NCBI GenBank assembly: GCA_965261975.1
Contig: CBDHEC010000046.1
Location: 33,848 to 97,847, forward strand
Direction of reading: 5' to 3'
Source of the DNA: Alphaproteobacteria bacterium
Lineage (GTDB): Bacteria > Pseudomonadota > Alphaproteobacteria > UBA6615
DNA length: 64,000 bases
Positions 19,492-61,738 of the stretch are shown one piece after another. Made by a program: the position numbers and the translations under genes. How positions within the stretch are numbered: the stretch's first letter is position 1; each line of letters begins with the position of its first letter. The notes beneath the pieces were generated by a model. That model was not told the origin of the DNA, made no database searches, and saw only the letters and a list, made by a program, of their open reading frames with translations.

Positions 19492-19515
19492 GCGCTCCCT
19501 ATAGCAAGGATGAGA

Positions 19516-21426
19516 CTAGGCACCAACCACAATATGTTGGGCACTACCATCGCTTTTCTTGTGTTTGCGCTTCACATAGCGGAGCAAGACCACCAGTGCT
19601 GCCGGGGTGACGCCGGGGACACGCCCGGCCTGGCCGAGGGTTGCCGGACGCAACCGGTCCAGCTTCTCGGCAATCTCGTTCGACAGTCCCGACACGGCGC
19701 GATAATCGAAATCATCCGGCAACACGAGCGCCTCGTCCCGCCGATAGGCCTCCACGTCGGCCGCCTGGCGATCGAGATAGCGGGCATACTTCGCCTCGAT
19801 CTCCATGGTCGCCCGGATCGGCGCCGGGATCTCCGCGAGGGCCGGCCAGATCTCCGCCGCCTGATCGAAGCTCGTATCGGGCATGGTCAGGAGGTCGAAG
19901 GCGGTCCGCCGAACTCCGTCCCGGTTTATCTGTATCCCGTACTGGGCAAGGGCGTCGGGTGTCGCATTGACCGCCTCAAGTTGCGCGCGCGCCTGGTCCA
20001 GCGCCGCCGCCTTGCGTTCATAACGTTGCGCCCGGGCCGCGCCCACGCAACCAATCTCCACCCCGAGACGGGTGAGGCGCTGGTCCGCATTGTCGGCGCG
20101 CAACAGGAGACGATACTCGGCGCGCGACGTGAACATCCGATAGGGCTCGTCGGCCCCGCGGGTGATCAGATCGTCGACCATCACGCCGATGTAGGATTGT
20201 GCCCGATCGGGCCGAAAACGAACCGCGCTCCCCGACGCGACCAGCGCGGCGTTGATTCCGGCCACCAGCCCCTGGCCCGCAGCCTCTTCATACCCGGTAG
20301 TGCCATTGATCTGACCCGCCAGGAACAACCCGGAAATCCGCCTCGTTTCCAAAGTAGTGCCAAGTTCACGCGGGTCGACGTAATCATATTCGATGGCGTA
20401 GCCGGGGCGGAGCACAGTCGCATTTTCAAGCCCCGGAATCGCCCGCAACATCGCCCGCTGCACATCCTCGGGCAGGGACGTGGAAATGCCGTTGGGATAG
20501 ACCGTGTCGTCATCCAGCCCCTCGGGCTCGAGGAAGATCTGGTGATGCTCCTTGTCGGCGAAACGAACCACCTTGTCCTCGATCGACGGGCAGTAGCGCG
20601 GGCCGCCGCTTTCGATCTGGCCGGAATAGATCGGCGCGCGGTCCAGGTTCGCACGAATCAGCTCGTGGACCGCGGAACTGGTGTGGGTGATGTGGCAATC
20701 GATCTGGGGCGTGGTAATCGCGTCGGTCATGTAGGAGAAGGGCACCGGCGGCGTATCGCCCGGCTGCCGGTCGAGGCCGTCCCAGTCGATCGTACGGCCG
20801 TCGAGGCGCGGGGGAGTCCCGGTTTTCAGGCGTCCCAGCGCAAACCCGGCGGATTCCAGCGTCTTCGAAAGCCCCATCGCCGGAGCCTCCCCGTACCGCC
20901 CCGCCGGCGTCTGGCTCTCGCCGATATGGATGACACCGCGCAGGAACGTCCCGGCCGTCAGGACCACGCAGCCGGCAGCGATCTCACGCCCGTCCGACAG
21001 CACCACGCCCGAGGCCCGGCCGTCCGGGTCAAGCATCAGGTCGTCCACGCCGGCGCCGAGAATATCGAGATTCTCCTGCTCGGCGAGGATGTCCTGGATC
21101 GCCTGCCGGTAGAGCTTCCGATCGGCCTGGGCGCGGGGCCCCCAGACAGCAGGCCCCTTGGTCCGGTTGAGCATCCGGAACTGGATTCCGCCACGGTCGA
21201 TCGCCCGGCCCATGATCCCGTCCAGGGCGTCGATCTCGCGCACGAGATGTCCCTTGCCCAACCCGCCGATCGCGGGATTGCAGGACATTTCGCCGATGGT
21301 CTCGAGCCTGTGGGTGACCAGGAGGGTGGACGCGCCGACCCGCGCAGAAGCCGCCGCGGCCTCACAGCCGGCATGGCCGCCGCCGATCACGATCACATCG
21401 TAGGTCTTGCTTTCCGGGTTGCTCAT
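19516..21426 (-). CDS. mnmG: tRNA uridine 5-carboxymethylaminomethyl modification enzyme MnmG (GidA)
   Basis: [46 protein letters not shown]. Confidence 0.98.
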
Positions 21427-21435
21427 TGCGCGCGC

Positions 21436-21464
21436 TATGTAGGCCCTGTGGCCGAGCCTGTCAA
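21436..21464 (-). promoter_or_regulatory. Putative sigma-70-type promoter of mnmG, implying a near-leaderless transcript
   Basis: Minus strand TTGACA-N17-TACATA ending 9 nt before the ATG. Confidence 0.55.
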
Positions 21465-21516
21465 AGAAGCATATCGGGGAGCTTCCGTATGGCCCCATGG
21501 GCACCCGGAAATCCGA

Positions 21517-21532
21517 TGTTTCACGTGAAACA
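21517..21532. other. parS: parS centromere site (mnmE-mnmG intergenic)
   Basis: Perfect TGTTTCACGTGAAACA. Confidence 0.95.
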
Positions 21533-21549
21533 TTCCCACCCGGGTATTC

Positions 21550-22881
21550 CTACTTCCCAATGCAGAAATCACGGAAAACCGTGTCCAGGATCTCGTCGAT
21601 ATCCACCCGGCCGGTGATCCGGCCCAGCGCCCGCAGCGCAACCCGGGCATCCTCCGCGGCGAGCTCGGGGTAGGCCGCGTCGGCCACATTCGACAGCGCG
21701 GCGTTGGCCTCCACCAAGGCGTCGCGATGGCGCTGGCGAGTCGGCAGGGGTGCTTCGGTCGACTCCAGGCGGTCGCGAACGAGGGCGGTCAGCCGGTCGA
21801 GCAAATCCTCCATCCCCGCGCCGGTGCCTGCCGACACGAGCATCGGCGACACGGGCAACGCCGGGGCGCCATAGTCGCCGTCGAGCAAATCCGCCTTGTT
21901 CGCCACCACAAGGGTCTCGTCGGTGATCAGGGCGCGGACTTTCGCGGGCAAGGTAGCATCGGTCGCATCGAGCACCACGAGCCGCAGGGCGGCACTCTCG
22001 GCGCGCTGTTGGGCCCGCCTGACGCCCTCGGCCTCGATATCGTCGGAAGCTTCACGGATGCCGGCCGTGTCCGAAACGGTGACCGCGAACCCGCCGAGAT
22101 TGAGCTGCACCTCGATCACATCACGGGTCGTACCAGCGACCTCGGAAATTATGGCCACGTCGCGTTGTGCTAAGTAATTGAGAATACTGGATTTTCCAAC
22201 ATTCGGCGCGCCAAGTATGACTATCGGGAAGCCGCTGCGGATTTGTTCACCCCGATCTGCACCTACTATATGTTGTGCTATTTCGGCGTTGAGCGCGGCG
22301 ATGCGTGCCTCGGTCCCGGCCTTCAACCCCTCGGGCAGCTCCTCGTCGGAGAAGTCGATTTCGGCCTCTGCGTAGCCCATCAGGTCGACCAGGCGCGCGC
22401 GCCAGCCTTCATAGAGATCCGCCAACGCCCCGTCATACTGGCGGAGTGCCAGCCGCCGCTGGGCGTCGGTCTGGGCCGCCACGAGGTCCGCCAGGCCCTC
22501 CGCCGCGGTCAGATCGAGCTTGCCGTTTTCGAATGCGCGCCGGGTGAATTCACCCGGTTCGGCGTGCCGGGCCAGGCCGGCGGCAGAGATCGCCTCGAAC
22601 ACCGCCTCCAGAACGGCGCGTCCGCCGTGCACCTGCAGCTCCGCGACATCCTCACCGGTGAAGCTGTCGGGCCCGGGAAACCGCAAGACCAGCGCCTGGT
22701 CTATAACCGCACCGTCGGCGTGTAGTTTATGTAACGCGGCATAACGCGCATCGGGCAACGGCGAGACCCCGAGCGAGGTCAGGAGCGCATCGGCATAGGG
22801 ACCGGAAATGCGCACGACCGAGACGCCGGCCAGCCCCGCGCCGCTCGACAATGCAAAGATGGTATCTGCTGCGGTGCCCAA
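21550..22881 (-). CDS. mnmE: tRNA modification GTPase MnmE (TrmE)
   Basis: DTIFALSSG, SFTGEDVAE, GAPNVGKSS, GTTRDVIE, DTAGIR, C-terminal FCIGK. Confidence 0.98.
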   Translation of the reverse strand: MGTAADTIFALSSGAGLAGVSVVRISGPYADALLTSLGVSPLPDARYAALHKLHADGAVIDQALVLRFPGPDSFTGEDVAELQVHGGRAVLEAVFEAISAAGLARHAEPGEFTRRAFENGKLDLTAAEGLADLVAAQTDAQRRLALRQYDGALADLYEGWRARLVDLMGYAEAEIDFSDEELPEGLKAGTEARIAALNAEIAQHIVGADRGEQIRSGFPIVILGAPNVGKSSILNYLAQRDVAIISEVAGTTRDVIEVQLNLGGFAVTVSDTAGIREASDDIEAEGVRRAQQRAESAALRLVVLDATDATLPAKVRALITDETLVVANKADLLDGDYGAPALPVSPMLVSAGTGAGMEDLLDRLTALVRDRLESTEAPLPTRQRHRDALVEANAALSNVADAAYPELAAEDARVALRALGRITGRVDIDEILDTVFRDFCIGK

Positions 22882-22888
22882 GGCAGGA

Positions 22889-23155
22889 TTACTTGCCGGG
22901 CTTGGTCGCGTTGGTCATCGACGACCAGAACGCATTCTGGAACTGTTCCCAGCCCTCGGCAGCGTCCGCGCCGGGCATGCCGCCGTCCGGCATCCACGCC
23001 TTGAACAGGCTCTGGGGGTCCATGGCCGACATCGCCTCCATGGCCTGCTTCTGCCATTCCTCGACGACCGCCTGCTGCGCCGCCGAGACGTCCGGCAGAC
23101 CCATGAAGCTGCGCGCCTCTTCGGGGGTGCAATCGATATCGATCGTGACTTTCAT
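22889..23155 (-). CDS. Small conserved protein (DUF6489-like)
   Basis: MKVTIDIDCTPEEARSFMGLPDV. Confidence 0.8.
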   Translation of the reverse strand: MKVTIDIDCTPEEARSFMGLPDVSAAQQAVVEEWQKQAMEAMSAMDPQSLFKAWMPDGGMPGADAAEGWEQFQNAFWSSMTNATKPGK

Positions 23156-23261
23156 CTTCCGTGCCTCCACAAGCTGCCTTGCCACCACCTTGTCTATGCG
23201 CGCGGCGCACCGACATTGTAGGTTGCGTTATCTTCCATCCCGATAGACCCGAGACCGCCAC

Positions 23262-25289
23262 ATGTCCGAACAGACGTCGCAAAACATGCTGGCGAACGAG
23301 ACCAGTCCGTATCTTCTGCAACACGCGGACAATCCCGTCCACTGGTATCCGTGGGGCGACGACGCCCTGGCGCGGGCCCAGGCCGAGAAAAAGCCGATCC
23401 TGCTGTCGATCGGCTATGCGGCCTGTCACTGGTGCCACGTGATGGCCCATGAGAGTTTCGAGGACGACGCCACCGCAAAAGTGATGAACGAGCTGTTCAT
23501 CAACATCAAGGTCGACCGCGAGGAGCGCCCAGACCTGGACGCGATCTACCAGGGCGCGCTGTCCCTGATGGGCGAGCAGGGGGGCTGGCCGCTCACCATG
23601 TTCTGCACGCCCGAGGGCAAGCCCTTCTGGGGCGGCACCTATTTTCCGCCGCGCGCGGGCATGGGCCGGCCGGGCTTCCCGGACCTGCTGATGAATATCG
23701 ACAAGATCTACCGGGTCGAGCAGGAGAAGGTGCAGTCCAACACGCAAGCCATCCTGCAGGCGCTCGGGGACATGGCCCGGCCTCAGCCGGGCGCGGCACC
23801 CGGGCCCGAACAGATCACCGCCTTCGCCGACGCGATCGCCGAGCAGGTCGACCGGCGCCATGGCGGCTTCGGCACCGCACCGAAATTCCCCCAATGCGGG
23901 GTGCTCGCGCTGATGTGGGCCCATGGCGGCGAGGCCGCGCGCGACGCCGTGACACTGACCCTCGACCGGATGGCCCAGGGCGGCATCTACGATCATCTGG
24001 GCGGCGGGTTCGCGCGCTACTCCACCGACGCGGCCTGGCTGGCGCCCCATTTCGAGAAGGTGCTCTACGACAACGCCCAGCTGCTGGAGCTCTACGCCCA
24101 GGCCTGGCGCGGCACGAAGGCTCCGCTCTATGCGCAACGCGCCGAGGAAACGGTCGCCTGGCTGCTGCGCGAGATGACCCACCCCGAGGGCGGCTTCTGC
24201 GCCACCCTGGATGCGGACTCCGAAGGGGTGGAGGGCAAGTTCTACGTCTGGAGCGAGGCGGAAATCGACGCGACGCTCGGCGCCGATGCCGGCTTGTTCA
24301 AGGACCATTACGACGTCCGGCCCGACGGCAACTGGGACGGCCACAACATCCTGAACCGGACCCGCGACCCGGGACTGAAAGACGCCGACACCGAGGCACG
24401 CCTGGCCGCGGCCCGGGCCAAGCTGTTCGAGGTTCGCGCGCCACGCATTCGCCCCGCGCTGGACGACAAGATCCTCACCGACTGGAACGGGCTGATGATT
24501 GCCGGACTGGTCGAGGCGGCGATGACCTTCGCCCGGCCGGACTGGCTGGAGGCCGCACACAACGCCTATGGCTTCGTGCGCCACCATCTCGCCACCGCCC
24601 TCCCGGACGACAGCATCGAACTCACCCACAGCTGGCGGGGCGGCGAGGCGCGCCACCGCGCCACCCTCGACGACTACGCCAGCCTGATGACCGGCGCATT
24701 GGCGCTTCACGAGGCGACGGGCGCGCAGCAAATGCTCGACGATGCGCGCGGGCTGGCGGCCTATATCGAGGGGCATTTCGCGTCGACGGACGGGTCGTAT
24801 TTCTTCACCTCCGACCTCGCCACCGACGTGATCACCCGCACCCGTACCGGCTTCGACAACGCCACCCCGGCGGGCAACGGGCTGCTCGCCACGGCGCTCA
24901 CCCGGATGTTCTACCTGACCGGCGACCCGGTTTATCGCGACCGGGCCACGGCGATCATCGAGGCCTTCTCGGGCGAGATCGACAACAACGCCTTCGGTTA
25001 CGGCACGTTGCTGCGCGCGTCGGGCCTGCTCGCCGCCGCGACCCAGATCGCGATCATCGGCGACCCGGACGCCCCCGGGACGAAAGCCCTGCAGCGCGCC
25101 GCCTTCCGGGGTGCCGCGCCCGAGCGGATCGTCTCGGTGATCGCGCCGAAGGGCACCCTGCCCGACGGGCACCCGGTGACCGGCAAGGAGCCTGTCGACG
25201 GCAAGCCCACCGCCTATGTCTGCCGCGGGCCGGTCTGCTCCCTGCCGATCACGGGCAAGGACGAACTCATGGCGGAGCTCTCGCGGTGA
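23262..25289 (+). CDS. Thioredoxin-domain YyaL/SPATA20-like protein
   Basis: SPYLLQHADNPVHW, GYAACHWCHVMAHESF, GGIYDHLGGGFARY. Confidence 0.93.
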   Translation: MSEQTSQNMLANETSPYLLQHADNPVHWYPWGDDALARAQAEKKPILLSIGYAACHWCHVMAHESFEDDATAKVMNELFINIKVDREERPDLDAIYQGALSLMGEQGGWPLTMFCTPEGKPFWGGTYFPPRAGMGRPGFPDLLMNIDKIYRVEQEKVQSNTQAILQALGDMARPQPGAAPGPEQITAFADAIAEQVDRRHGGFGTAPKFPQCGVLALMWAHGGEAARDAVTLTLDRMAQGGIYDHLGGGFARYSTDAAWLAPHFEKVLYDNAQLLELYAQAWRGTKAPLYAQRAEETVAWLLREMTHPEGGFCATLDADSEGVEGKFYVWSEAEIDATLGADAGLFKDHYDVRPDGNWDGHNILNRTRDPGLKDADTEARLAAARAKLFEVRAPRIRPALDDKILTDWNGLMIAGLVEAAMTFARPDWLEAAHNAYGFVRHHLATALPDDSIELTHSWRGGEARHRATLDDYASLMTGALALHEATGAQQMLDDARGLAAYIEGHFASTDGSYFFTSDLATDVITRTRTGFDNATPAGNGLLATALTRMFYLTGDPVYRDRATAIIEAFSGEIDNNAFGYGTLLRASGLLAAATQIAIIGDPDAPGTKALQRAAFRGAAPERIVSVIAPKGTLPDGHPVTGKEPVDGKPTAYVCRGPVCSLPITGKDELMAELSR

Positions 25290-25822
25290 CGGGGACGGAC
25301 GCAACACAGAGCTGCGTCCTGGAATCTCCCGTGGGCAACATCCGCGTGACGGCCGCGGGCGGTGCCGTCTCGGCCCTGGACTGGACCGATAAACAACCGC
25401 GCGTGCCCGGCACGAAAATCCTGCGCGACGCGGCCAGGCAGCTGGCGGAGTATTTCGCCGGCACCCGCACCGAGTTCTTCCTGCGCCTCGCGCCCGTCGG
25501 CACGGACCACCAGAAGAAGGTCTGGGCCGCGATGTGCGAAATTCCGTCCGGCGCCGTGCGCAGCTATGGCGACATCGCCCGCGAGATCGGCTCGTCGGCC
25601 CGCGCGGTAGGCACGGCCTGCGGCAAGAACCCGATCCCGATCATCGTGCCGTGTCACCGGATTCTTTCGACCGGCGGCGGCATCGGCGGCTATTCCGGGC
25701 GCGGCGGCATCGCGACCAAGCGCCAGCTGCTCGCCCTCGAAGGCTATGCCGTCGCGGGCGACGATCAGGGCCACCTCGATCTTGAAGGCGGCCGTCTTGA
25801 AGGCGAAATCGCCAGCCGATAG
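25286..25822 (+). CDS. ogt: Methylated-DNA--protein-cysteine methyltransferase
   Basis: ARAVGTACGKNPIPIIVPCHRI active site; GTGA overlap with upstream stop. Confidence 0.93.
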   Translation: MTGTDATQSCVLESPVGNIRVTAAGGAVSALDWTDKQPRVPGTKILRDAARQLAEYFAGTRTEFFLRLAPVGTDHQKKVWAAMCEIPSGAVRSYGDIAREIGSSARAVGTACGKNPIPIIVPCHRILSTGGGIGGYSGRGGIATKRQLLALEGYAVAGDDQGHLDLEGGRLEGEIASR

Positions 25823-25870: not shown

Positions 25871-26845
25871 ATGGTCCACGCAATCCGATTCCACGAGCCC
25901 GGCGGGCCGGAAGTCATGAAGTGGGAAGAGGTCGAGGTCGGCGATCCCGGCCCCGGCGAGATTCGCGTGAAACACACCGCCGCGGGCCTCAACTTCATCG
26001 ACATCTATCTCCGTTCGGGTGCGCGCCCGGTCCCCATGCCGAACGGGCTGGGGCTCGAGGGCGCCGGCGAGATCGTCGCCGTGGGCGACGGCGTGAGCGA
26101 CCTGGCCGTCGGTGACCGGGTCGGCTATGCCGACATGCCGCTCGGGGCCTACGCGGAAGAACGCGTGATGCCGGCGAAGATCACGGTGAAACTCCCCGAC
26201 GGCATTTCCGACGAGCAGGCCGCGGCCATGATGCTCAAGGGCATGACCGTGCAGTTCCTGATCAAGTCCTGCTTCCCGGTCCAAAAAGGCCAGACCGTCC
26301 TGTGGCACGCGGCGGCCGGCGGGGTGGGCCTGATTGCGTGTCAGTGGCTCAACCATCTCGGGGTCACGGTCATCGGCACCGTGGGTTCCGAAGAGAAGGC
26401 CGAACTCGCCAAGGCCCATGGCTGTCACCACACGATCAACTACAAGGACGAGGATTTCGTCGCGCGGGTGAAGGAGATCACCGACGGCGCGGGCGTGCCC
26501 GTGGTCTATGACGCGACCGGCAAGGACACACTGCGCGGCTCCATGGAATGCCTCCAGCGGCGCGGCTACCTGATCAGCTTCGGCAATGCGTCCGGCGCAC
26601 CCGACCCGGTCGAGCTCACAGAGCTCTCGGCCCATGGCTCGATCTACGCCGCCCGGCCCATGCTGTTCGACTTCACGGCCGAGCGCGACGAACTGCTGGC
26701 CTGTGCGGGCGACCTGTTCGACGTCGTGTCATCGGGCGCGGTGAAGATCGAGATCAACCAGCGCTACCCGCTGTCGGAGACGGTGCAGGCCCATATCGAC
26801 CTGGCCGGCCGCAAGACGACGGGTTCGACGATCCTGATGGCTTAG
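25871..26845 (+). CDS. qor: NADPH:quinone oxidoreductase (zeta-crystallin family)
   Basis: GLNFIDIY, HAAAGGVGLIACQW, SFGNASG. Confidence 0.9.
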   Translation: MVHAIRFHEPGGPEVMKWEEVEVGDPGPGEIRVKHTAAGLNFIDIYLRSGARPVPMPNGLGLEGAGEIVAVGDGVSDLAVGDRVGYADMPLGAYAEERVMPAKITVKLPDGISDEQAAAMMLKGMTVQFLIKSCFPVQKGQTVLWHAAAGGVGLIACQWLNHLGVTVIGTVGSEEKAELAKAHGCHHTINYKDEDFVARVKEITDGAGVPVVYDATGKDTLRGSMECLQRRGYLISFGNASGAPDPVELTELSAHGSIYAARPMLFDFTAERDELLACAGDLFDVVSSGAVKIEINQRYPLSETVQAHIDLAGRKTTGSTILMA

Positions 26846-28935: not shown

Positions 28936-30003
28936 TCAGGATCCAGCATGCGCCGATGATGCCGCAACCGGGCATTTCGACCATTCGGCCGCGCAGACGC
29001 GGCCGCTTTTTGCCAACGGGTCGCCACTGCAGATATCACAGCCCGCCGCGATGTTCCCGCGCACCTGATCGGCCAGCCCCGCGATGAACGCCGGGGCGGT
29101 GTCCACGGTCGGGACACGGATATATTCGGCCACCCCGGCCCTGTCGGCCAGCTCGCGATACTCGATGTCGAGCTCGACGAGGGTCTCCGAATGTTCCGAC
29201 ACGAAAGCGATCGGCACGATGACCACGGATTTCCCGTCCGCCCCGGCGCGCTCGATCTCGTCGTCGGTCGAGGGGCCGATCCATTCGAGCGGGCCGACCC
29301 GGCTCTGGTAACAGCACAGCCAATCGAGCTCCTGCCCGAGACTTTCCATCACGGCGGCAGCGGTCTGTTCCACCTGGGACTGATAGGGATCACCACCCTC
29401 GACGATCTGCTTCGGCAGACCATGGGCGGAAAACAGCACGCGCACATCCTTGGTATCACGCGATACCCCTTCCAGGGCCGAGGCCAGCAATCCGCTCACC
29501 GCGCCGATGAAGCCCGGGTCGGTCGGGTAACAGCACAACGCCGTCACGGGAATATCGAGCTTCTGCTTGCGCGCCGCCCGCGCCCAGACCCGCATCATGG
29601 AACCCACCGTGGTGGTCGAGAATTGCGGATAAAGCGGCAGCAGAACAATCCGGTCCGGCTGCGCCGCGATGACCTCTTCCATCACGGCATCGCACATCGG
29701 GTGCCAGTAGCGCATGGCGACGAAGCATTTGTATTCCCCGCCGCCATCCGCGTTCATCACAGATTCCAGTGCGTCGGCCTGGGCGCGGGTGTTGGCGAGC
29801 AGGGGCGATCCGCCGCCGATGTTGGCGTATATCTCCCGGGCGATGGGTGCGCGCTTGCGCGAGATGACCTGGGCCAGCAACCAGCGGATGGGCGTGGGCG
29901 CACCGATGATCATCGGATCGTTGAACAGGTTGAACAGAAACGGCCGGACGTCATCGGGCCCGTCGGGTCCGCCCAGATTGTAGAGGATAACGGCGGTGGT
30001 CAT
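28936..30003 (-). CDS. hemH: Ferrochelatase
   Basis: NLGGPD, AMRYWHP, PLYPQFS, FSAHGLP, FVSEHSETLVELD. Confidence 0.97.
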   Translation of the reverse strand: MTTAVILYNLGGPDGPDDVRPFLFNLFNDPMIIGAPTPIRWLLAQVISRKRAPIAREIYANIGGGSPLLANTRAQADALESVMNADGGGEYKCFVAMRYWHPMCDAVMEEVIAAQPDRIVLLPLYPQFSTTTVGSMMRVWARAARKQKLDIPVTALCCYPTDPGFIGAVSGLLASALEGVSRDTKDVRVLFSAHGLPKQIVEGGDPYQSQVEQTAAAVMESLGQELDWLCCYQSRVGPLEWIGPSTDDEIERAGADGKSVVIVPIAFVSEHSETLVELDIEYRELADRAGVAEYIRVPTVDTAPAFIAGLADQVRGNIAAGCDICSGDPLAKSGRVCAAEWSKCPVAASSAHAGS

Positions 30004-31037
30004 GTGCCGGCGTTCCATTCGCGAACGATCTCGGCGAGGCGTTCGACATGAGAAAACGGCGTGTCCTTATGGATCCCGTGCGCCAGGTTGAAGACGAACG
30101 GCCCCGCGCCCAGGCCGTCGAGAATTTCCCGCGCCGCTTGCTCCATCTCTTCGCCACCGACCATCAGATAGGCCGGGTCGAGATTTCCCTGTACCGGGCA
30201 GATCGGCTGGATTTTCTCTGCCGCCTCGGCTGCGGTCATGGACGCATCGAGCCCGACGGCATCAACACCCGTGCCACGGATATATCCCTCCAGACGATCA
30301 CCGACGCCACGAGCAAACCCGATGATCGGGACATTCGGCACCCGCGCGTTGACCCCCTCAACGATCCGCGCGGTCGGCGATATGACCCAGTCGTCGAAGT
30401 CCCCCGCGGGGACCGCGCCGGCCCAGGTGTCGAACAGCTGCAGCGCCTGGGCGCCCGCCTCGACCTGGGCCACGAGGTAATCCGTGGTCGAGGCGACCAG
30501 GATATCCAGCATGGCGGCGAAGTCTCCGCGTTCGCGAACCGCCCAGCTCTTGATCCCATTGAAGTCACGGCTGGAGCCGCCCTCGACCATGTAGGTGGCG
30601 ACCGTCCAGGGCGCGCCGGCGAACCCGATCAGGGCCACATCGTCGGGCAGTTCCGCGCGGACACGGGACACGGTTTCGAAAACCGGGGCTAGATGATCGA
30701 GTGTTTTTGCCGGGTCGAGCTTCGCCAGATCGGCGCCGCCGGTGACCGGTGTGAGGACGGGACCGGTCCCCTCGACAAAGCCGACCTCCTGACCGATCGC
30801 GTCGGGGATGACCAGGATATCGGAAAACAAAATCGCGGCATCGGGCCGGAACCGTTCGATCGGCTGCAGGGTGACCCGTGCTGCGCGTTCCGGGGTGTAG
30901 CAGAGATCCAGAAACCCATCGGCCTGGGCACGGATTTCCCGATATTCCGGCAGATATCGCCCGGCCTGGCGCATGAACCAGAATGGCGGGCGGGGCCCGG
31001 TTTGATCGGACAGGGCATCGAGGAACAGGTTGGACAC
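30000..31037 (-). CDS. hemE: Uroporphyrinogen decarboxylase
   Basis: WFMRQAGRYLPEY, AILFSDILV, GFAGAPWT, FNLAHGI. Confidence 0.97.
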   Translation of the reverse strand: MSNLFLDALSDQTGPRPPFWFMRQAGRYLPEYREIRAQADGFLDLCYTPERAARVTLQPIERFRPDAAILFSDILVIPDAIGQEVGFVEGTGPVLTPVTGGADLAKLDPAKTLDHLAPVFETVSRVRAELPDDVALIGFAGAPWTVATYMVEGGSSRDFNGIKSWAVRERGDFAAMLDILVASTTDYLVAQVEAGAQALQLFDTWAGAVPAGDFDDWVISPTARIVEGVNARVPNVPIIGFARGVGDRLEGYIRGTGVDAVGLDASMTAAEAAEKIQPICPVQGNLDPAYLMVGGEEMEQAAREILDGLGAGPFVFNLAHGIHKDTPFSHVERLAEIVREWNAGT

Positions 31038-31480
31038 GGCTTTGAAAACTGACGTTTGGGCTGAGCTGAATGCGGGCTGACTATGCCGATCCGGTTATCC
31101 TGGCGCATCCTAAAAATAAGTAATTGAACGTAGTGAAAAGTGAAATGTAGTTGTAGATGCGCGGTGAATCCGAGGGATAATTCGTTGTTCACAAATTCGT
31201 ACAGGGCGACACCCGGTTGTGCACGGACGGCGGGGCGTGTTGTTCGCAATTCTCCTAATGTGTTGTTCTGAAATATATTCGTGTCGGACGGGGATGTGGA
31301 TCACCTGCATCGCGGGTATGGATGAGTTTCATCGGGGTCGATTCCATACCCGCTGTTGGAAACTTTGTCCGCCGTGGGATGACAGCGGGTCGTTCGGACG
31401 GCATAAGGTTGAACAAATATTTTGAGCCGCGCGAAGTTGCGACTTATCCCCGTTGTCATTCCTTTCTCTCCCAGCCGAAA
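31038..31480. other. oriC: Probable chromosomal replication origin (oriC)
   Basis: Intergenic between hemE and a DUF299 gene, as for the Caulobacter origin; AT-rich tract 31111-31158; DnaA-box-like 9-mers TTGTTCACA 31185-31193, TGATCCACA (minus strand) 31295-31303, TTATCCCCG 31444-31452; parABS ~10 kb away; flanking operons point away from it. Confidence 0.85.
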
Positions 31481-53522: not shown

Positions 53523-53534
53523 GCGGCGGGTCCC

Positions 53535-54592: not shown

Positions 54593-55828
54593 CTAGTTCC
54601 GGCCGAGAATGGTCACACAGGCCACGGCCTCTTCGATGCCGTGAAAGCCGCCGCCATTTTCCGCGATCGCGTATTCGGCATCCGCCACCTGCCGCGAGCC
54701 GGCCTCCCCGCGGAGCTGGGTGGTCAGTTCGAACACCTGTGCGAGGCCCGTGGCGCCGACCGGGTGTCCCTTGGATTCGAGCCCGCCCGACGGATTGACC
54801 GGAATCCGGCCGCCGAGGGTCGTGGCGCCGCTTTCCGTCAGCGCGCCCCCTGCCCCGAAGTCGCAGAAGCCGAGATTCTCGACCTGCTGGATCTCGGCGA
54901 ACGCCGTGGCGTCATGGACCTCGGCCACATGCATGTCGTCCGGCCCCAGCCCGGCCCGCTCATAGGCGTCGCGGGCCGCGAGGTGCGTGACATGCCGGTC
55001 GAATTCCTGGGGATCGCGGTCGGAGCCGGTGCGCAGCGCCGTCGCGTGAATCTTTACCGCCCGCGACCGGTCGAAGCGGTCGAGTTCCTCCTCGCGGCAG
55101 ATGATTGCCGCCGCGGCACCGTCGGAAATGGGCGAACACATGGGCAGCGTCAGCGGCCAGCTCACCTTGCGCCCGGCCATCACCTCGTCGACCGACATCG
55201 CCTCGCGATATTGCGACAGCGGGTTGTGGGCGGAATGGGCGTGGTTCTTGGCGGCCACGGCGGCGAGTTGTGCCTGGGTCGTGCCGAAGGACTTCATGTG
55301 GAACTTCGCCAGGGCGGCGTAGACATCCATGAACACGCTGCGCTGGCCGGTGTCTTCCTCGCCGTCCGGGTCGGCGACCCCCTGCCCCAGCGCCAGGAGC
55401 CGATCGGTCGCGGCCGCCACGTCATGGACATCCCAGCCGCCGTCGAACACCGAGAACATTTTGGCCCGGTCCTCGTGGAACATCTTCTCGGCACCCACCG
55501 CGAGTGCCACCCCGCCGCGCCCGGCCTCCAGCCAGGTCGCGGCCATGTCGAGCGCCGTCGAAGCGCTGGCGCAGGCATTCTCCACATTGGTGACCGGGAT
55601 TTCCTGGATGCCCATGTTGCGCAGCGCGATCTCGCCGGGGATTGACCCCTGCCCTTCGAGGATCGCCTGGGCGGCGTTGGAGAACCATGCCGCCTCGATG
55701 TCGGCAATTTCCGCACCGGCATCCGCCAGCGCATCGGTCACTACGGCGCGTGTCATTTCCTTGATCGGCCGGTCGAGATAGCGGCCGAACGGTGTCATGC
55801 CCACGCCGACGATGTAGATGTCAGTCAT
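54593..55828 (-). CDS. Thiolase family protein (SCP2/SCPx-type)
   Basis: VENACASAS, EVHDAT, NPSGGL..GHPVGATG. Confidence 0.9.
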   Translation of the reverse strand: MTDIYIVGVGMTPFGRYLDRPIKEMTRAVVTDALADAGAEIADIEAAWFSNAAQAILEGQGSIPGEIALRNMGIQEIPVTNVENACASASTALDMAATWLEAGRGGVALAVGAEKMFHEDRAKMFSVFDGGWDVHDVAAATDRLLALGQGVADPDGEEDTGQRSVFMDVYAALAKFHMKSFGTTQAQLAAVAAKNHAHSAHNPLSQYREAMSVDEVMAGRKVSWPLTLPMCSPISDGAAAAIICREEELDRFDRSRAVKIHATALRTGSDRDPQEFDRHVTHLAARDAYERAGLGPDDMHVAEVHDATAFAEIQQVENLGFCDFGAGGALTESGATTLGGRIPVNPSGGLESKGHPVGATGLAQVFELTTQLRGEAGSRQVADAEYAIAENGGGFHGIEEAVACVTILGRN

Positions 55829-55854
55829 CTTCTCATTTCCTCTTTGTCTGCCGC

Positions 55855-57096
55855 CTAGATCGACACAGGCATGCTGGTCAGGCCGCGGAACCGGGCCCGC
55901 CCGCCACGGCTCACCGGGCCGGTGCGTTCCAGGTCGGGGAAGGCGGCGACCAGTTTGCCGATGGCGATCGTGCCCTCCATGCGCGCGAGCGGCGCACCGA
56001 TACAGGCGTGAATGCCGGCGGCGAATGCCAGATGCTTGTTGGGCGTGCGCGTGATGTCGAAGACCTCGGGCCGGTCGAAAGCGTCGGGGTCGTGGTTGGC
56101 GCCGCCGATGCTTGTGAGCACCTGGGTGCCGGGCTCGAGGGTGATGTCGCCGATCTCGAACGGCTCGGCGATGCCGCGGTTACCGATCTGCAGCGGGCTG
56201 TCGAAGCGCAGCATTTCCTCGATCGCGCCGCCGATCAGCGACGGGTCCTTACGCAGCTTGTCCAGTTGATCGGGGTTGTCGAACATCGCCTTCATGCCGT
56301 TGCCCACGAGGTTCGTCGTCGTTTCGTGGCCGCCGTTGAGCAGCAGGATGCAGTTCTGGACGAGCTCGTCCTCGGTCAGGGGGTCGTCTTCGGAATCCTG
56401 GGATTCGATCAGTTCTTCGAGAATGTCCCCTGCCCGCACGCCGCGTGCCATGTTGCGCCGTTTCTCCGCCAGGAGATCGCGCAGGAAGGCGGTGAACTCG
56501 TCGACAGCCCGGTTGCCGGCCGCGACCATCTCCGGTGTCGCCGTGGGCTCGAGCGGTGTCAGGATTTCCCGCGACCATTCCTGCAGCCGTTCCCGTTCGC
56601 TTGTGTCGATTCCGAGCATGGAGCAGATCACCTCCACCGGCAGCGGGAACGCGAAATCCAGAACGAGGTCCATCCCGCCTTCGTCGCGGCAGCGTTCGAT
56701 CAGGCTGTCCACGAGATCGACCACCCGATGTTCGAGCTGCTGCAGGGCGCGCGGCGTGAAAGCGTGGCGCAGGAGGTTGCGAATGCGGGTGTGATAGGGC
56801 GGGTCACTGAACAGCATCGACGTGGTGTGCTGTTCGAGCAGCGGCCCCGGCCCGTACTTCTTTGTGAACATCTCGGTCTTGTCCGACGTCATGCCCTTGG
56901 TGCGGTAGACCCGGCGCACGTCTTCGTAGCGGGTCAGGTAGAAGGACCCGTCGGTGTTTTCATGCACCGGATCGAGCGCGCGGAGCGCGTCATAATAGGG
57001 ATACGGGCTCTCGTAGAATTCGGCCGGCGGGGCATACAGGTCGAAACGCTCAAGCAGTTCGCCCTGGGTCGCCGGGGCGACCATTGTTGATCTCAT
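55855..57096 (-). CDS. Cytochrome P450
   Basis: DPPYHTRIR, GGHETT, EEMLR, FAAGIHACIG haem ligand. Confidence 0.95.
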   Translation of the reverse strand: MRSTMVAPATQGELLERFDLYAPPAEFYESPYPYYDALRALDPVHENTDGSFYLTRYEDVRRVYRTKGMTSDKTEMFTKKYGPGPLLEQHTTSMLFSDPPYHTRIRNLLRHAFTPRALQQLEHRVVDLVDSLIERCRDEGGMDLVLDFAFPLPVEVICSMLGIDTSERERLQEWSREILTPLEPTATPEMVAAGNRAVDEFTAFLRDLLAEKRRNMARGVRAGDILEELIESQDSEDDPLTEDELVQNCILLLNGGHETTTNLVGNGMKAMFDNPDQLDKLRKDPSLIGGAIEEMLRFDSPLQIGNRGIAEPFEIGDITLEPGTQVLTSIGGANHDPDAFDRPEVFDITRTPNKHLAFAAGIHACIGAPLARMEGTIAIGKLVAAFPDLERTGPVSRGGRARFRGLTSMPVSI

Positions 57097-57239
57097 GACG
57101 TTTCCCCTGTCGTCTATATCGATGGCCTGAATGCTGTGACGGCCATTTTGTTGTTGGGCGTAATTGTAGGCAAAGCAGCAGGCAATGACTACGCTCTAGG
57201 GAACCGGTTCGGCCGGGCAGGACAGGGAATGAGTTCAAG

Positions 57240-57941
57240 ATGAGCCATCACGAAGATGAAGCCGAGCATCACTACGTGCACAGGATTGGCTGGTTGCGCG
57301 CCGCCGTTCTGGGGGCGAATGACGGCATTGTCTCGACCGCGAGCCTGATTGTCGGCGTCGCGGCGGCGTCGGCGGACCGCGAGACCATCCTGATCGCCGG
57401 TATTGCCGGGTTGGTGGCCGGCGCCACGGCCATGGCCGCCGGTGAGTATGTCTCGGTCAGCTCCCAGTCCGACACGGAACGCGCGGATCTGGAGACCGAG
57501 CGCCTCGCGCTGGAGGCCTCGCCAGACGAAGAGCTGGCCGAACTGGCTCAGGTCTATGTGGGCCGCGGGCTTGAGCCGGAACTGGCCCGGGAAGTCGCCA
57601 TTCAACTCACCGCGCATGATGCGCTGGGTGCGCATGCGCGAGACGAGCTGGGGATGCACGACACGAGCGCGGCGCGGCCCTTACAGGCGGCCTGGACATC
57701 TGCGGCGACATTCTCGGTGGGTGCAGGATTGCCGCTGGTTGCCGTGGCCCTGTCGCCGGTCGCCCAGGCCATACCCGTGGTTTCCATCGCGTCGCTGGCC
57801 AGTCTGGCGCTGCTCGGGGCCGTCTCGTCGAAGGTCGGCGGTGCGCCGGTGGCGCGGGCGACAGCGCGCGTCACGCTCTGGGGCGCCTTCGCGATGGCCC
57901 TCACGGCCGGAATCGGTAGCCTGGTCGGCGCGGCGATCTAG
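57240..57941 (+). CDS. VIT1/CCC1 family Fe/Mn transporter
   Basis: LRAAVLGANDGIVS, MAAGEYVSVSSQ, HARDELG. Confidence 0.93.
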   Translation: MSHHEDEAEHHYVHRIGWLRAAVLGANDGIVSTASLIVGVAAASADRETILIAGIAGLVAGATAMAAGEYVSVSSQSDTERADLETERLALEASPDEELAELAQVYVGRGLEPELAREVAIQLTAHDALGAHARDELGMHDTSAARPLQAAWTSAATFSVGAGLPLVAVALSPVAQAIPVVSIASLASLALLGAVSSKVGGAPVARATARVTLWGAFAMALTAGIGSLVGAAI

Positions 57942-58160
57942 GAGTCCGGGCCGGCGGGGCGCCGGTAGCCGCCGCACGCACGGAATGATGGCGGGCCCGC
58001 AGTGTTTACAACTGTGTGAGTGCGTGTTCACCGAAACATACGGAGCGACCCGCTTTCTGCGGATTCCAGGCCCGGGTTCTTTTGGGTAGTGCCAAAAGGC
58101 GGGTGCGGTAGTACCGTATGATTCGAGGTGGATGACGTTCGCAAGCGGAACCGAGCACTA

Positions 58161-59636
58161 ATGCTGCATAAGATCTTCGGCGCCGGCATGGCGTTTCTTG
58201 CTAACCGGCCACAGTTTGTGGTGGCTGCGCTCATCGCCGTGACACTGGCCGGTTTCACGACGGGGGTCCGCCATTACGCGGATGAAGCCAAGATACAGAC
58301 CGCCTACGACACGGCCAAATCATTCGAAAACTCCATTACGGCGCTGCACCAGTATTACTCCAAGGAGATCGAGCCGCGCGCACGCGCGGCGGGCGTTGAG
58401 TTTGCAATCGACTTCCACGATCACCCGGACCAGCTTCCCTTCCCGGCCACCGTATCGATCGAGTTTGGGAATACGCTTCGGGCTGTGAATCCGGCGATGA
58501 GCACCAAGATATACAGCCTTGACCCGTTTCCCAATCGCCGAGACCGAGTGCTTGACGCGTTCGAGACGGAATCTCTCGCCGTGCTCCTGAACGACCCCGA
58601 AACCGATTTTTTCCGGATCGAGGTCCGCGATGGCCAGGAATTCGCGCGGTATGCCCGCGCGCTCAAGATGGAAGCAGCATGCGTCGAATGCCACAACCGG
58701 CCCGAATACGGCTTTGAGGGGCGATGGAAACTGGGTGAGGTGCGCGGGGCCCAGCAGGTTACCCTGCCGGTACCCAATCTGACGCCGTTCATTGACCGGG
58801 CGACCGGAACGGCGATCTGGATCGCCATCGCCTCGTCATTGCTCGGCGGATTGCTGGTATGGCCTGTCGTCGCACGGCTTCGCCAGACGTTATCGCGCGC
58901 CGAGGCCGCGACCGAAGAACTTCGGGAGGCGAACAGGGCGAAGGAAGCTCTCTTCTCTATCGTTGCCCACGATCTGCGCAGCCCGTTGACCGGAATCATC
59001 GGTATTACCCGCTGGATCGCCGGCGCCGGGGGGAAGCTCAGCAAGGAAGCTCTCGTCGACTATGCCTCGGACATCAAGGAGGAGGGCGAACGGACGCTGG
59101 ATTTCCTGGACACGATGCTAAAATGGTCAAACGACCAGATGGACGGCATAACGCTGAAACCGCAGAACTTCGCCATCCGCGCGCTTGCCGAGGAATGTGT
59201 CTCACTGGTATCCGCGACGAGTTACCAGAAATCGGTCTTTATTGCCCAGAATGCCGGGCCCGAGACCGTCTATGCAGATCGCGAGGTGGCAAACGTCATT
59301 CTGCGCAACCTGATCAGCAACGCCATCAAGTTTACCCCCGGCGGCGGTGAAATCGAAATTTCCACCCGCAAGTCGGGCGATCAGGTGTTTGTGGCCGTCC
59401 GGGATACCGGTGTCGGGCTCAGTGCGGAAGAAATCGAGGTTCTCCTCGGCGCCCAACGGAACTTCTCGAAGGCCGGTACGGATGGTGAGCAGGGGACCGG
59501 CCTCGGTCTGGAGCTGTGCATCGAGATGATCGAAAAGTATGGTGGAAGCTTCACGATCACAAGTGAGCCCGGCCAGGGGGCCGTTTTCGAGTTTTCGCTG
59601 CCCGCCGCCGACTCGGATCGGTCGCAAGAAGCATGA
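58161..59636 (+). CDS. Sensor histidine kinase with an extracytoplasmic c-type haem (DUF3365-like) domain
   Basis: Two TM segments flanking a domain with CVECH; AHDLRSPL H-box, NLISNAIKF, DTGVG, GTGLGL. Confidence 0.88.
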   Translation: MLHKIFGAGMAFLANRPQFVVAALIAVTLAGFTTGVRHYADEAKIQTAYDTAKSFENSITALHQYYSKEIEPRARAAGVEFAIDFHDHPDQLPFPATVSIEFGNTLRAVNPAMSTKIYSLDPFPNRRDRVLDAFETESLAVLLNDPETDFFRIEVRDGQEFARYARALKMEAACVECHNRPEYGFEGRWKLGEVRGAQQVTLPVPNLTPFIDRATGTAIWIAIASSLLGGLLVWPVVARLRQTLSRAEAATEELREANRAKEALFSIVAHDLRSPLTGIIGITRWIAGAGGKLSKEALVDYASDIKEEGERTLDFLDTMLKWSNDQMDGITLKPQNFAIRALAEECVSLVSATSYQKSVFIAQNAGPETVYADREVANVILRNLISNAIKFTPGGGEIEISTRKSGDQVFVAVRDTGVGLSAEEIEVLLGAQRNFSKAGTDGEQGTGLGLELCIEMIEKYGGSFTITSEPGQGAVFEFSLPAADSDRSQEA

Positions 59637-59901
59637 ATGGCTGAGGCAATACACTGGACTACCTTTTGGATATACCAGCCTGTTATTAAACGGTTTTCTA
59701 AAAGTAGTGCGGGTTGACCTTTCGAAATTTCCGGGCCGTACACGGCCGCTGGCCGGGCGGTTTTTACGACCTTTTCCGACAGGGTGCTTTTTTCTGCTTC
59801 CGAAACCGTCCGGGAGAGGAATTATTCGGGATCTGCTAACGGACCCTGCGGGACGGTATTCGGGGCGTCCCGGGGGCCTCGCCGGCGGTCTGCAAAAAGT
59901 A

Positions 59902-61429
59902 CTACTTCTGGAGCACTACCCGGCGGTAGCTAAGGGCTTCGGCAATGTAGTGCCTCGCGATCGAGGCCTCCGGAGGGGGCGAATTTTCTACATCTAAATC
60001 TGCTAATGTACGGGCCACCCGCAGCACCCGGTGATAGCCCCGGGCCGACAGTTTCAGCTTCTCCGCCGCCTGCTTCATCAGATCGCGTCCGTCGGCGTCC
60101 GGCGTGGCGACGGATTCGAGCAATTTCCCATCCGCTTCGGCATTCGTGAGCGCGTCGGTGCCGGCATAGCGTTTGGCCTGAATGGCACGCGCCCTGGCGA
60201 CCCGGGCGGCGACTTCCGCGCTGCCCTCCGCGGGTGGTGGCAGGGTGAGGTCGGCCGCGGAGACCGTCGGGACGTCCACGAAGAGGTCTATGCGGTCCAG
60301 CAGGGGCCCGGAAAGCCGCGCCTGGTAGTCTGTGGCGCATTTCGGCGCCCTCGAGCAGGCGAGGCCGGGATCGTCCAAATGTCCGCATCGGCAGGGGTTC
60401 ATGGCCGCAATCAGCTGAAAACGTGCGGGATAGGCAACGTGGCGGTTGGCCCGGGCGACGACCGCGCGACCGGTTTCCAGCGGCTGGCGCAGGGATTCGA
60501 GCGTTTGCCGGCTGAATTCCGGCAATTCGTCGAGAAACAGGACACCGCGGTGAGAGAGGGACACCTCGCCCGGTTTCGCCCTCGTACCGCCGCCCACGAG
60601 CGCTGCAAGGGACGCGGAGTGGTGTGGGTCGCGGAACGGCCGCGTCGTCATCAGCCCGCCCTCGGGCAGCGTGCCGGAGATGGAGTGAATCATCGAAACC
60701 TCGAGGGTCTCGGCCGGTGACAATGGCGGAAGGATGCCGGGCAGGCGCTGGGCGAGCATCGATTTACCGGCGCCCGGGGGGCCCGAAAGGAGCAAATTGT
60801 GGCCCCCGGCCGCCGCGATTTCGAGCGCTCTTTTGGCAGATTCCTGGGCCTTTATGTCGATTAGATCCGGGTATGACTGGGTAGGGTCATACCGTAGTAC
60901 TTTGGGTGGCGACAGCAACTGGGCGCCCTTGAGGTGGTTGACCAGTGCCAGCATGTCCGGTGCGGCCAGAATCTCGAGATCGCCGGCCCAGGCAGCCCTC
61001 GCCCCCCTGTGCTGCGGGGCAGATCAGCCCGCGATCGCGGGCCGAGGCGTCGATCGCGGCCGGCAGGACGCCCGATACGGTCGCCAGCGCCCCATCGAGG
61101 GCCAGTTCGCCCAATGCGGTGTACTGAGCCAGCAGGTCGTCCGGCACGACCCCCATGGCGGCCAAAAGCCCCAATGCGATGGGCAAATCATAGTGACTGC
61201 CTTCCTTGGCCAGATCCGCCGGGGCCAGATTGACCGTTATTCGCTTGGGCGGCAGTGAAAGGCCCAGCGCCTGGAGGGCGGCGCGCACCCGTTCGCGGGA
61301 TTCGCCGACCGCCTTGTCGGGCAGGCCGACGATGGTGAAGGCGGGGAGCCCGGCGCCCATCTGGACCTGGACGTCCACATCGACCACGTCCACGCCCTGG
61401 AAGGCGACCGTATTGACGTGTGCGACCAT
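59902..61429 (-). CDS. comM: YifB/ComM Mg-chelatase-like AAA+ helicase, with one apparent frameshift near 60996-60998
   Basis: VGLPDKAVGESRERVR, NLAPADLAKEGSHYDL, GPPGAGKSM, FLDELPEF, AAMNPC; removing one C restores GGEAAWAGDLEILAAP. Confidence 0.93.
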
Positions 61430-61510
61430 GATGCCCTCGTCGATCCCCTCTCCGATCCCGCGTCTGCAGACCGTTCGGGCAGCGACGATAGCGGGTTTGA
61501 CGAGCCATTA

Positions 61511-61525
61511 GAACAAAAAATGAAC
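61511..61525. promoter_or_regulatory. Alphaproteobacterial LexA (SOS) box upstream of comM
   Basis: GAAC-AAAAAAT-GAAC (GTTC-N7-GTTC on the comM strand), ~80 bp upstream of the ATG. Confidence 0.8.
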
Positions 61526-61738
61526 AAATAACCCCGATTGTCACGGTATACCGGTAGAGCCATACCGTTAACAAAAAGTAATACGCTATTGTTTTTCCAG
61601 GATAATAGCCCATTAAAAAGTAGTACAATATCAGGCCTGTTGGCCTGGCCGGGGAATCGCGATTCCGGCCCCGGCGCGCCTGAAAATGCGGCCGTTAGCG
61701 GTGTTTTCGGGCGGGTTTTCGGCCGGCAGGGGCCGCCC

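Follow-up and report, generated by a model that had tools for sequence, protein, structure and literature searches.

A composite element of GTAGTRC heptamers at the 3′ end of comM in a genus of Alphaproteobacteria, and its possible role as a protein-binding site

The heptamer GTAGTRC is clustered in a 64,000-nucleotide stretch of an alphaproteobacterial genome (contig CBDHEC010000046.1, positions 33,848 to 97,847, forward strand; the whole stretch is called the window below). At the 3′ end of the competence helicase gene comM the heptamers form a three-part module of fixed architecture which, among the genomes of the same genus, occurs exclusively in association with comM. We propose, with a probability of roughly 0.45, that a sequence-specific multimeric DNA-binding protein bridges two such modules at comM; GTAGTRC would then be the recurring subsite of a composite DNA element that is specific to the genus and linked to this gene. 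The genome studied (G000; other genomes carry labels of the same form) has an assembly of 3,028,418 bp in 59 contigs with a GC content of about 63%, the window lying on contig C46. For comparative evidence we relied on a single genus of uncultured organisms with DNA identities of 74–97%, whose members are kin and not independent samples.

A preliminary description of the window had reported 11 exact copies of GTAGTRC found by eye, three in mnmG (19541, 20297, 20354) and eight around comM (58086, 58108, 59704, 59899, 59913, 59947, 60894, 61620). All 11 are present at these coordinates and on the strands given, as are the near matches GGACTAC at 59656, GTAATAC at 61578, and GTTGTGC at 22164 and 22272. 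The phrase "around comM" needs correction for part of the second zone, as positions 58128–59636 encode a sensor histidine kinase and not comM, which occupies 59902–61429; the copies at 58086 and 58108 therefore lie upstream of the kinase gene. The remark that the total is about what base composition would give does not hold, since 11 copies are approximately four times the expectation: dinucleotide shuffles of the window (n = 100) contained 2.96 copies on average and 8 at most, with none reaching 11, and the whole assembly contains 127 copies, or 2.7 per 64 kb. The reported clustering, on the other hand, is borne out. The eight copies at 58086–61626 (3,541 bp) form the largest cluster in the genome, a span of equal length contains at most 3 copies elsewhere, and when 127 sites were placed at random 20,000 times, no such span ever held more than 5. 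Only four adjacent pairs of GTAGTRC copies in the genome are no more than 80 bp apart, and all four are inside the window.

Most of the 127 copies are ordinary, and those in the window are different. Fifty-eight of the 83 copies in called genes (the gene caller is crude, with 77% of the genome taken as coding) read xxG CAC TAC or xxG TAC TAC, the preferred codons for His-Tyr or Tyr-Tyr, and such codons also make up most of the remaining small clusters, on contigs C34, C40 and C26 (7 of 11 copies). Two further candidate loci, C5:1323-1484 and C57:189454, were discarded as ordinary coding sequence. Within the window only the copy at 59947 (Arg-His-Tyr in comM) belongs to this class. The remaining coding copies fall into rare classes, namely GGC ACT ACN (Gly-Thr-Thr, twice, in mnmG), Gly-Ser-Ala, Val-Val (GTA GTG), Val-Leu (GTA CTA) and one holding the comM stop codon, and four copies are non-coding. 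Shuffling of synonymous codons gave an excess in both genes that carry heptamers: mnmG has 3 copies compared to a mean of 0.17 (none of 5000 shuffles reached 3), and the 3′ open reading frame (ORF) of comM, a gene read as two ORFs at 59902–60954 and 60887–61429, has 3 copies compared to a mean of 0.28 (P = 0.0002). The kinase gene has no copies, with a mean of 0.41 in the shuffles.

The architecture of the comM module is H1-N7-H2-N27/28-H3, 55–56 bp in total, with H1 and H2 in direct and H3 in inverted orientation, and one module spans the last 16 codons and the stop codon of comM. In G000 this module C occupies 59899–59953 and reads GTACTAC-N7-GCACTAC-N27-GTAGTGC on the plus strand. H1 (59899–59905, GTACTAC) contains the comM stop TAG on the minus strand, H2 (59913–59919, GCACTAC) corresponds to the Val-Val codons GTA GTG, and H3 (59947–59953, GTAGTGC), 27 nucleotides after H2, to the Arg-His-Tyr codons; the same architecture recurs in G010, G002, G009 and G004. 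Its partner, module B, lies in non-coding DNA at 59656–59710, 243 bp away from start to start, and reads GGACTAC-N41-GTAGTGC, with H1 (GGACTAC) at 59656–59662, a degenerate H2 (GATATAC) at about 59669–59675, and H3 (GTAGTGC) at 59704–59710 preceded by an A-tract. Module B is also present in G010, G007 and G004; the partners in G002 and G011 are of M type. Position 2 of the heptamer varies freely (G, C, T or A), which is more in keeping with a degenerate protein contact than with an RNA stem.

The association of the module with comM is strict. Convergent pairs GNACTAC...GTAGTNC separated by 0–120 nt occur three times in the whole of G000, all at 59656–59953 and with gaps of 27, 41 and 41 nt. 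The pattern GNACTAC-N41/42-GTAGTNC was found at 13 places in 12 genomes of the genus, every one coinciding with the comM 3′ end or following it by no more than about 2 kb, and at none elsewhere. Twelve of the 13 are distinct, as the apparent duplication of the comM end in G002 is really a 141-nt overlap between contig ends. The complete list contains 13 modules across 7 same-genus genomes. No module match was found in G001, G003, G005, G006 and G008, where a comM DNA query found nothing, and a ComM protein query was also negative in four of these five. In other genera of the family the ComM tail differs (R-x-H-I-A-E-A-L...P-G-R-stop) and is without heptamers, and no heptamer copies were found at comM in G048, G053, G034 and G016.

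Paired modules have the same orientation, and their start-to-start distance is 243 bp in G000, 242 bp in G010, G007 and G002, and 241 bp in G011 and G004. A distance of 242 bp is about 23 helical turns. The spacer between the modules (59711–59898, 188 nt in G000) is 185–188 nt long in six genomes, and its sequence is mostly unalignable, with 12 of 15 pairs aligning no better than shuffles (z < 3). The spacers share no small ORF; that of G000 carries a terminator-like hairpin and T-run at 59743–59765, downstream of the kinase gene. By contrast, the region upstream of comM in the same genomes is rich in indels. The only explanation we found for a spacer of fixed length and free sequence is a constraint on the distance between the modules. 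The same distance recurs in metagenomic sequences. Of 31 loci matching the full three-heptamer pattern, 23 are low-complexity GTACTAC-rich repeats without ComM, and the other 8 have ComM adjacent and the module at the comM end. Five of these 8 contain more than one module (three distinct sequences), and the spacing is repeated in all five: 244 bp in L187 (identical to L202), 242 bp in L190 (identical to L203 and of the G002 type) and 242 bp in L208, which has three modules.

In some genomes the pair has been displaced from the current end of comM by additional DNA, 1.7 kb in G011 (encoding a cupin and an alpha/beta hydrolase), 1.1 kb in G007 (a DUF2189 protein) and about 0.3 kb in L208. The comM-side modules of the displaced pairs are decayed comM ends: module M2 of G011 retains the reading frame of the same 16 codons and stop, the pseudo-copy of G007 matches comM at 72% identity over 98 nt, and the middle module of L208 is comM-like. 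In these three, as well as in M1 of G011 and in the G002 module, the heptamers and their spacing are intact while the interiors have diverged. The persistence of heptamers in diverged and displaced copies is the best evidence for selection on the heptamers themselves.

The copies in mnmG are also conserved, within the genus. Sites 1 and 2 (20297–20360, plus strand) are GTAGTGC at 20297 and 20354, read on the coding minus strand as GGC ACT ACN (Gly-Thr-Thr); site 3 (19541–19547, minus strand) is a GTAGTGC in the Gly-Ser-Ala codons of the C-terminal tail. A codon alignment of mnmG from six species has 684 columns, of which 468 are identical in amino acid and 115 in codon. The longest run of invariant codons, GQINGTT (7 codons), holds one site and the second is in GTT-x-ETRRI; these are the two blocks of mnmG with the strongest synonymous conservation. 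Each of the two sites is carried by 8 of 10 genomes of the genus and by none of 20 genomes from other genera, which encode the same amino acids by ACC or ACG or have different residues. Site 3 is retained in G010 and G007 and has diverged in G011, G002 and G009. In both zones, relatives from the same genus retain the heptamers at synonymous and non-coding positions, and other genera lack them. Together with the excess over the codon-preserving null model, this supports the notion of the preliminary description that a functional DNA word is partly written into codons. Longer words common to the two zones are suggestive only: GTAGTGCCAA has 3 copies in the genome, two of them at 20354 and 58086, and GGTAGTGCC has 8 copies, three in the window. 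It is possible that one factor links the two zones.

Looser arrangements of heptamers surround the modules. Element A (58086–58121, plus strand), upstream of the histidine kinase gene, has GTAGTGC at 58086–58092 in a hairpin loop and GTAGTAC at 58108–58114 followed by CGTATGA; the hairpin has z = −3.27, with none of 200 shuffles folding equally well, and the element is conserved in G010. Element D (60870–60900), in the inter-domain linker of comM, consists of the inverted repeat GGTATGAC (60870–60877) and GTCATACC (60886–60893) followed by GTAGTAC (60894–60900), and on the minus strand it reads GTACTAC-G-GTATGA, the 14-mer pattern of element A. Four of five genus genomes retain a heptamer at the linker, GTAnTAC or GCACTAC, with GTATGAC or GTACGAC after it. 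Element E (61553–61626), upstream of the comM promoter, contains GGTAGAGCCATACCGT (61553–61568), which resembles 60880–60895, and the two words AAAAAGTAATAC (61573–61584) and AAAAAGTAGTAC (61615–61626), 42 bp apart; G010 has two GTAnTRC copies upstream of comM with the same 42 bp spacing. Several longer words are confined to this locus. All 4 genome copies of AAAGTANTAC are within 59896–61626, the 2 copies of GTANTACNGTATGA are at 58108 (plus strand, upstream of the kinase gene) and 60887 (minus strand, comM linker), and GGTAGrGyCATACCGT occurs at 60880 and 61553. With up to one mismatch AAAAAGTAGTAC has 3 copies in the genome and with up to two mismatches GGTAGGGTCATACCGT has 2, every one of them at the comM locus. 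Copies of AAAGTAGTGC on small contigs of G010 were set aside, being part of a repeat of about 2 kb.

Fixed architecture and phasing, free spacer sequence, degeneracy at position 2 and survival outside coding sequence lead us to infer a multimeric DNA-binding protein. The heptamers would be putative contact points of one such sequence-specific protein, predicted to bridge the two modules some 23 helical turns apart, and the weaker single or double sites upstream of comM, in the comM linker, in the kinase promoter and in mnmG might be used as well. The role of the complex would be local to the comM locus, either control of the transcription of comM and its neighbours or DNA transactions there, and would not be the organisation of an origin domain. 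A wider version, which we consider doubtful, is an undescribed DNA-binding system with sites in the codons of comM and mnmG flanking the replication origin oriC, whose two-module complex at the comM end would act as a switch or insulator for comM and a cassette-accepting locus, or as a second origin-proximal organiser beside parS.

Several observations weigh against the proposed protein complex. Arg-His-Tyr in preferred codons trivially yields GCACTAC, and this class accounts for 58 of the 83 coding copies. The centre-to-centre distances within the module (14, 34–35 and 48–49 bp) do not correspond to whole numbers of helical turns. G010 is the only genome that shares elements A, D and E in full (four of five genomes in the case of D). 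The closest relative, G008 (95–97% identity in the mnmG and mnmE fragments compared), is without mnmG site 1 through a synonymous change of ACT to ACC. Both mnmG sites are retained in G006, where comM was not found, so that the two zones need not share a factor. The conservation is limited to close kin, and part of it is therefore shared ancestry. No candidate binding protein emerged from the analysis, and no known motif family matches.

The main rival, which we consider unlikely, is site-specific integration at the comM 3′ end, with the modules as its attachment-type sites or what is left of them; incoming DNA would bring a replacement comM end, old ends would pile up downstream, and the heptamers would be recombinase contacts. 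The non-coding modules do resemble decayed comM ends (G011 M2, the G007 pseudo-copy, the L208 middle module), inserts precede the displaced pairs, and direct repeats of the gene end flank foreign DNA in these same three cases. The gene content between VIT1 and comM is different in every species, G008 has 66 kb of low-GC DNA instead of the kinase, comM and amidohydrolase genes, and comM is split elsewhere in the family, with pieces 55 kb apart in G045 and on different contigs in G018 and G015. However, none of six tyrosine recombinase matches in G000 is on C46, G000 has no serine recombinase and no Y1 transposase, and no recombinase was found in the G007 or G011 inserts. The duplicated comM stretch of G007 reaches at least 98 nt upstream of the module, which places the crossover probably outside it. 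Decaying relics would not hold a distance of 241–244 bp over unalignable spacers, a gap of 27–28 bp between inverted subsites is unlike tyrosine-recombinase cores, and integration leaves the sites in mnmG, in the comM linker and at the promoters unexplained. The absence of any present function is a further possibility, and we regard it as improbable: a comM end that carried heptamers by chance would have undergone one or a few duplications, and in mnmG the copies would be codon accidents frozen in a young clade. This would agree with comparisons that are all within one genus at 74–97% DNA identity, with an Arg-His-Tyr copy in the commonest trivial class, and with the synonymous loss of one mnmG site in G008. 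It is at odds with heptamers that outlast change-saturated interiors at a spacing held to ±2 bp, with synonymous shuffles that never reach the mnmG count, and with the location of both mnmG sites in the top conserved codon runs of the gene. Action at the RNA level appears very improbable. The heptamers would be stem arms, seed and target pairs, or stems at the 3′ end of the comM mRNA; for example, an RNA from the 3′ untranslated region of the kinase gene could pair by AAAGUAGUGC with GCACUACUUU in the mnmG mRNA and GGCACUAC in the comM mRNA. H2 and H3 are indeed complementary, module B lies between the kinase stop codon and the terminator-like hairpin, the extended word AAAGTAGTRC has three genome copies, all in the window (20351, 59701, 61617), and in our reading the two changes in the arms of the linker hairpin (G010, G002) retain G-U pairing on the plus strand only. 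But the sequences fold no better than shuffles (z = −0.87 for module B, −0.88 for module C, −1.43 for element D and +1.17 for the mnmG block), a 7 bp stem closing 27–41 nt is weak, and no Rfam match at the gathering score was found in the whole window. H–H3 pairing is, by our reading, broken on one or both strands in 4 of the 13 modules (G011 M2, G009 C, G004 C, and G000 B with G010 B as one type), and likewise in the comM-end module of G011.

The preliminary description had instead suggested that the two zones may be arrays for a factor of replication, segregation or the nucleoid, which would mark an origin-proximal domain. Its geometry is reasonable in view of gene order, GC skew and parS sites. 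The left part of the window encodes parB, parA, rsmG, mnmG (19516–21504, minus strand) and mnmE (21550–22881, minus strand), as mapped by Pfam, and the middle part rho, hemH, hemE (30000–31037, minus strand), a gap, a DUF299 kinase/pyrophosphorylase, maf and aroE, an order which we take to be the usual setting of oriC in Alphaproteobacteria. The gap between hemE and the DUF299 gene (31038–31452, 415 bp) coincides with the minimum of GC content per kilobase in the central window (0.579) and contains the word TGATCCACA at 31295, and the cumulative GC skew has its minimum near 26 kb. The 16 bp parS palindrome TGTTNCACGTGAAACA is matched exactly at 19390, inside rsmG, and at 21517–21532 (TGTTTCACGTGAAACA, in the 45 bp gap between mnmE and mnmG), and with three mismatches, the most allowed, at 25959. 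The zones are thus about 10–12 kb and 27–30 kb to either side of the hemE–DUF299 gap, one of them near the two exact parS sites. The distance between mnmG and comM, 37–45 kb, is retained in G010, G011, G009 and G002, the words GTAGTGCCAA and GGTAGTGCC are common to both zones, and 6 of the 12 copies of AAAGTANTRC in G010 are at mnmG or comM. The mnmG sites are retained in 12 of 12 cases in the six comM-bearing genomes compared with 4 of 8 in the four comM-lacking ones, in genomes that are not phylogenetically independent. A flanking position is plausible in this light, but beyond the proximity of comM and mnmG nothing ties the sites to oriC, and the argument is one of position. No parS match overlaps a heptamer site, and words resembling DnaA boxes are not above chance in the window (7 compared to 4.3 expected). 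The sites are not spread over a domain. Structured sites occupy two loci only, the other 116 genome copies are outside the window, and one of the two loci is strictly bound to the non-essential comM, which is missing together with all modules from 5 of the 12 genus genomes. The small clusters elsewhere are mostly Tyr-Tyr or His-Tyr codons, and an association with TA-rich islets was not seen. The structured modules are strictly at the comM 3′ end, and an origin-flanking array now seems quite improbable to us.

The islets of AT-rich codons, which the preliminary description had linked to the heptamers, were defined here as windows of 12 codons with no more than 4 GC-ending codons and clean flanks. 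Only 2 of the 127 heptamer copies lie within 30 nt of an islet, one of them at 59947, and we treat islets and heptamers as separate phenomena. Islets of low GC content at third codon positions are not a distinctive feature of these zones either, with 145 found in 134 of the 2264 called genes and 5 in the window compared to 3.1 expected. With only 2 of its 12 codons ending in G or C, the islet in comM (59980–60024) nevertheless belongs to the three most extreme, and its conservation is partial, with AT-rich codons in G000, G010 and G011 and GC-richer synonyms in G007 and G002. In mnmE, patches of AT-rich codons are located at 22165–22203 and 22263–22277. The latter, CACAACATATAGTAG on the coding strand, is invariant in six species at 79–95% identity, and since it contains TATAGT it could be an internal promoter, maybe for mnmG-rsmG-parAB.

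ComM is a helicase for transformation and for the uptake of gene-transfer-agent DNA. The gene (59902–61429, minus strand) was assigned by a Pfam scan to the Mg-chelatase-like AAA+ competence helicase family, and the best named relatives of its product are from alphaproteobacterial metagenome-assembled genomes, with at most 69% identity. Its division into two ORFs results, by our reading, from a 1-nt frameshift, one extra base in a run of G near 60990–61000. Read depth over comM is only about 2, and contigs from one sequencing run (depth about 2–5) showed no joints or variants and left 60928–61002 uncovered, so that a sequencing error is as likely as a pseudogene. The promoter region contains a LexA-type box, GTTC-N7-GTTC (61512–61526, minus strand), which overlaps the −35 element, agrees with the alphaproteobacterial LexA box and is invariant in all five aligned genus genomes. 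The heptamers are not part of it. The −10 element (about 61465–61475) is TATAGT in four relatives and TATCGT in G000. A sigma-70 promoter scan of 57900–61800 gave no matches, and terminator-like matches in the same region were at the chance level (5 compared to 4.3). No tRNA or tmRNA genes were found in the window. ComM is placed in the LexA regulon of Alphaproteobacteria in a passage of PMC6473078.

VIT1 (57240–57941, plus strand) and the kinase gene (58128–59636, plus strand) lie on the 3′ side of comM. The kinase carries a Tll0287-like domain (Pfam) with a C-x-x-C-H motif in the sensor, read as A-C-V-E-C-H-N near 58680–58700; it is an orphan without an adjoining response regulator and among the genomes examined is located beside comM only in G000 and G010. 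Upstream of comM an amidohydrolase gene (from 61739, minus strand) is apparently split, the ORF at 61739–62356 matching only the last 80 positions of the Pfam model, with another minus-strand ORF at 62259–62702 just upstream. The DNA that replaces the locus in G008 (G008:C1:560980-627066, L166–L169) has a GC content of 0.51–0.62 per 4 kb, no similarity to G000, an ORF of 2467 amino acids and no comM remnant. In other genera comM is found in two pieces in G045 (G045:C1:3849225-3905282), in G018 (contigs C50 and C67) and in G015 (C25 and C117), with break points at about residues 137–213 of the query, which suggests large insertions inside the gene. In G010 a repeat of about 2 kb with 99–100% identity is present on the small contigs C1, C2 and C4 (L170–L173), and an identity of 98% extends over more than 10 kb between C2 and C4; an insertion sequence together with duplicated or plasmid-like DNA is the likely explanation.

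If the heptamers are docking sites, they would constitute a clear natural case of a cis-element that overlaps the end of a conserved gene, last codons and stop included, with subsites and a phasing of 242 bp held while everything between them changes. They would offer a handle on the control of alphaproteobacterial comM beyond LexA and bear on the frequent gain and loss of genes at this locus. If they are only scars of integration, the comM 3′ end would still stand out in this family as an insertion hot spot. Under both readings, most of the support for the specific claim of an origin-organising system falls away.

The element fits none of the known site families that we compared, and the papers listed by a full-text literature search for the four heptamer words were all unrelated. 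Integron attC sites are imperfect palindromes of 57–141 bp delimited by the core sites RYYYAAC and GTTRRRY. They were rejected as a match because the heptamers GNACTAC and GTAGTRC have A and not T as the third base of the core and the module has three subsites and not four; nor does an intI-type tyrosine recombinase gene adjoin it, the six Phage_integrase matches of G000 all being on contigs other than C46. The GTAG-headed palindromes of the REP/RAYT system occur in many intergenic copies along with a Y1 transposase gene, whereas no PF01797 match was found in G000 and the modules are located only at comM. Readings as sigma-54, CtrA, GntR/FadR-type or NarL-type sites were dropped by eye against the consensus sequences, as spacing or key bases misfit. 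Like parS, matS, SlmA and Noc sites, the heptamers are short words tolerated in coding sequence in one chromosome region, with true parS nearby, but those are single palindromes of 12–16 bp distributed over large domains and recognised by known proteins, in contrast to a tripartite heptamer module at one gene with three copies in mnmG; with 127 copies genome-wide and structured sites at two loci only, the distribution differs from that of the domain-marking families matS, SlmA and Noc, whose many sites extend through one chromosomal domain and are scarce outside it.

The FRT target of FLP, with two inverted 13 bp repeats and a third direct one, has a similar layout of two direct and one inverted repeat, although its crossover spacer is 8 bp, compared to a gap of 27–28 bp and repeats of 7 bp here. 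In cer and psi, with accessory sequences of about 160–180 bp, the length of a poorly conserved flank likewise matters; the comM module has no visible 28 bp core of the XerCD type and lies at a chromosomal gene end and not in a system for plasmid dimer resolution. Islands at tRNA genes and integrase-free CIME-type elements, which accrete in tandem at the 3′ end of a target gene, share the displaced gene 3′ ends downstream in direct orientation, the variable locus and, in some genomes, unrelated cargo genes between the copies. In contrast to such integrative accretion, no integrase was found in or beside the inserts, which encode only the DUF2189 protein, the cupin and the alpha/beta hydrolase, the G007 duplication exceeds the module, and the spacing of the module pair is conserved while the spacer sequence is not. 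A literature search combining comM with integration gave nothing specific to comM (PMC11476347 contains no occurrence of comM). Compared with the lac and gal operators, the strongest sites here are at the gene 3′ end and beyond it and not at the promoter, and a three-subsite module with a partner at 242 bp, for which no repressor is known, is unlike known operators. What the comM element has in common with them is that binding words, putative here, are written into the codons of the regulated gene, as in lac O2 within lacZ and gal OI within galE, and that several sites are positioned at, in and beyond a gene at a fixed distance, as in the auxiliary lac and gal operators that act by looping.

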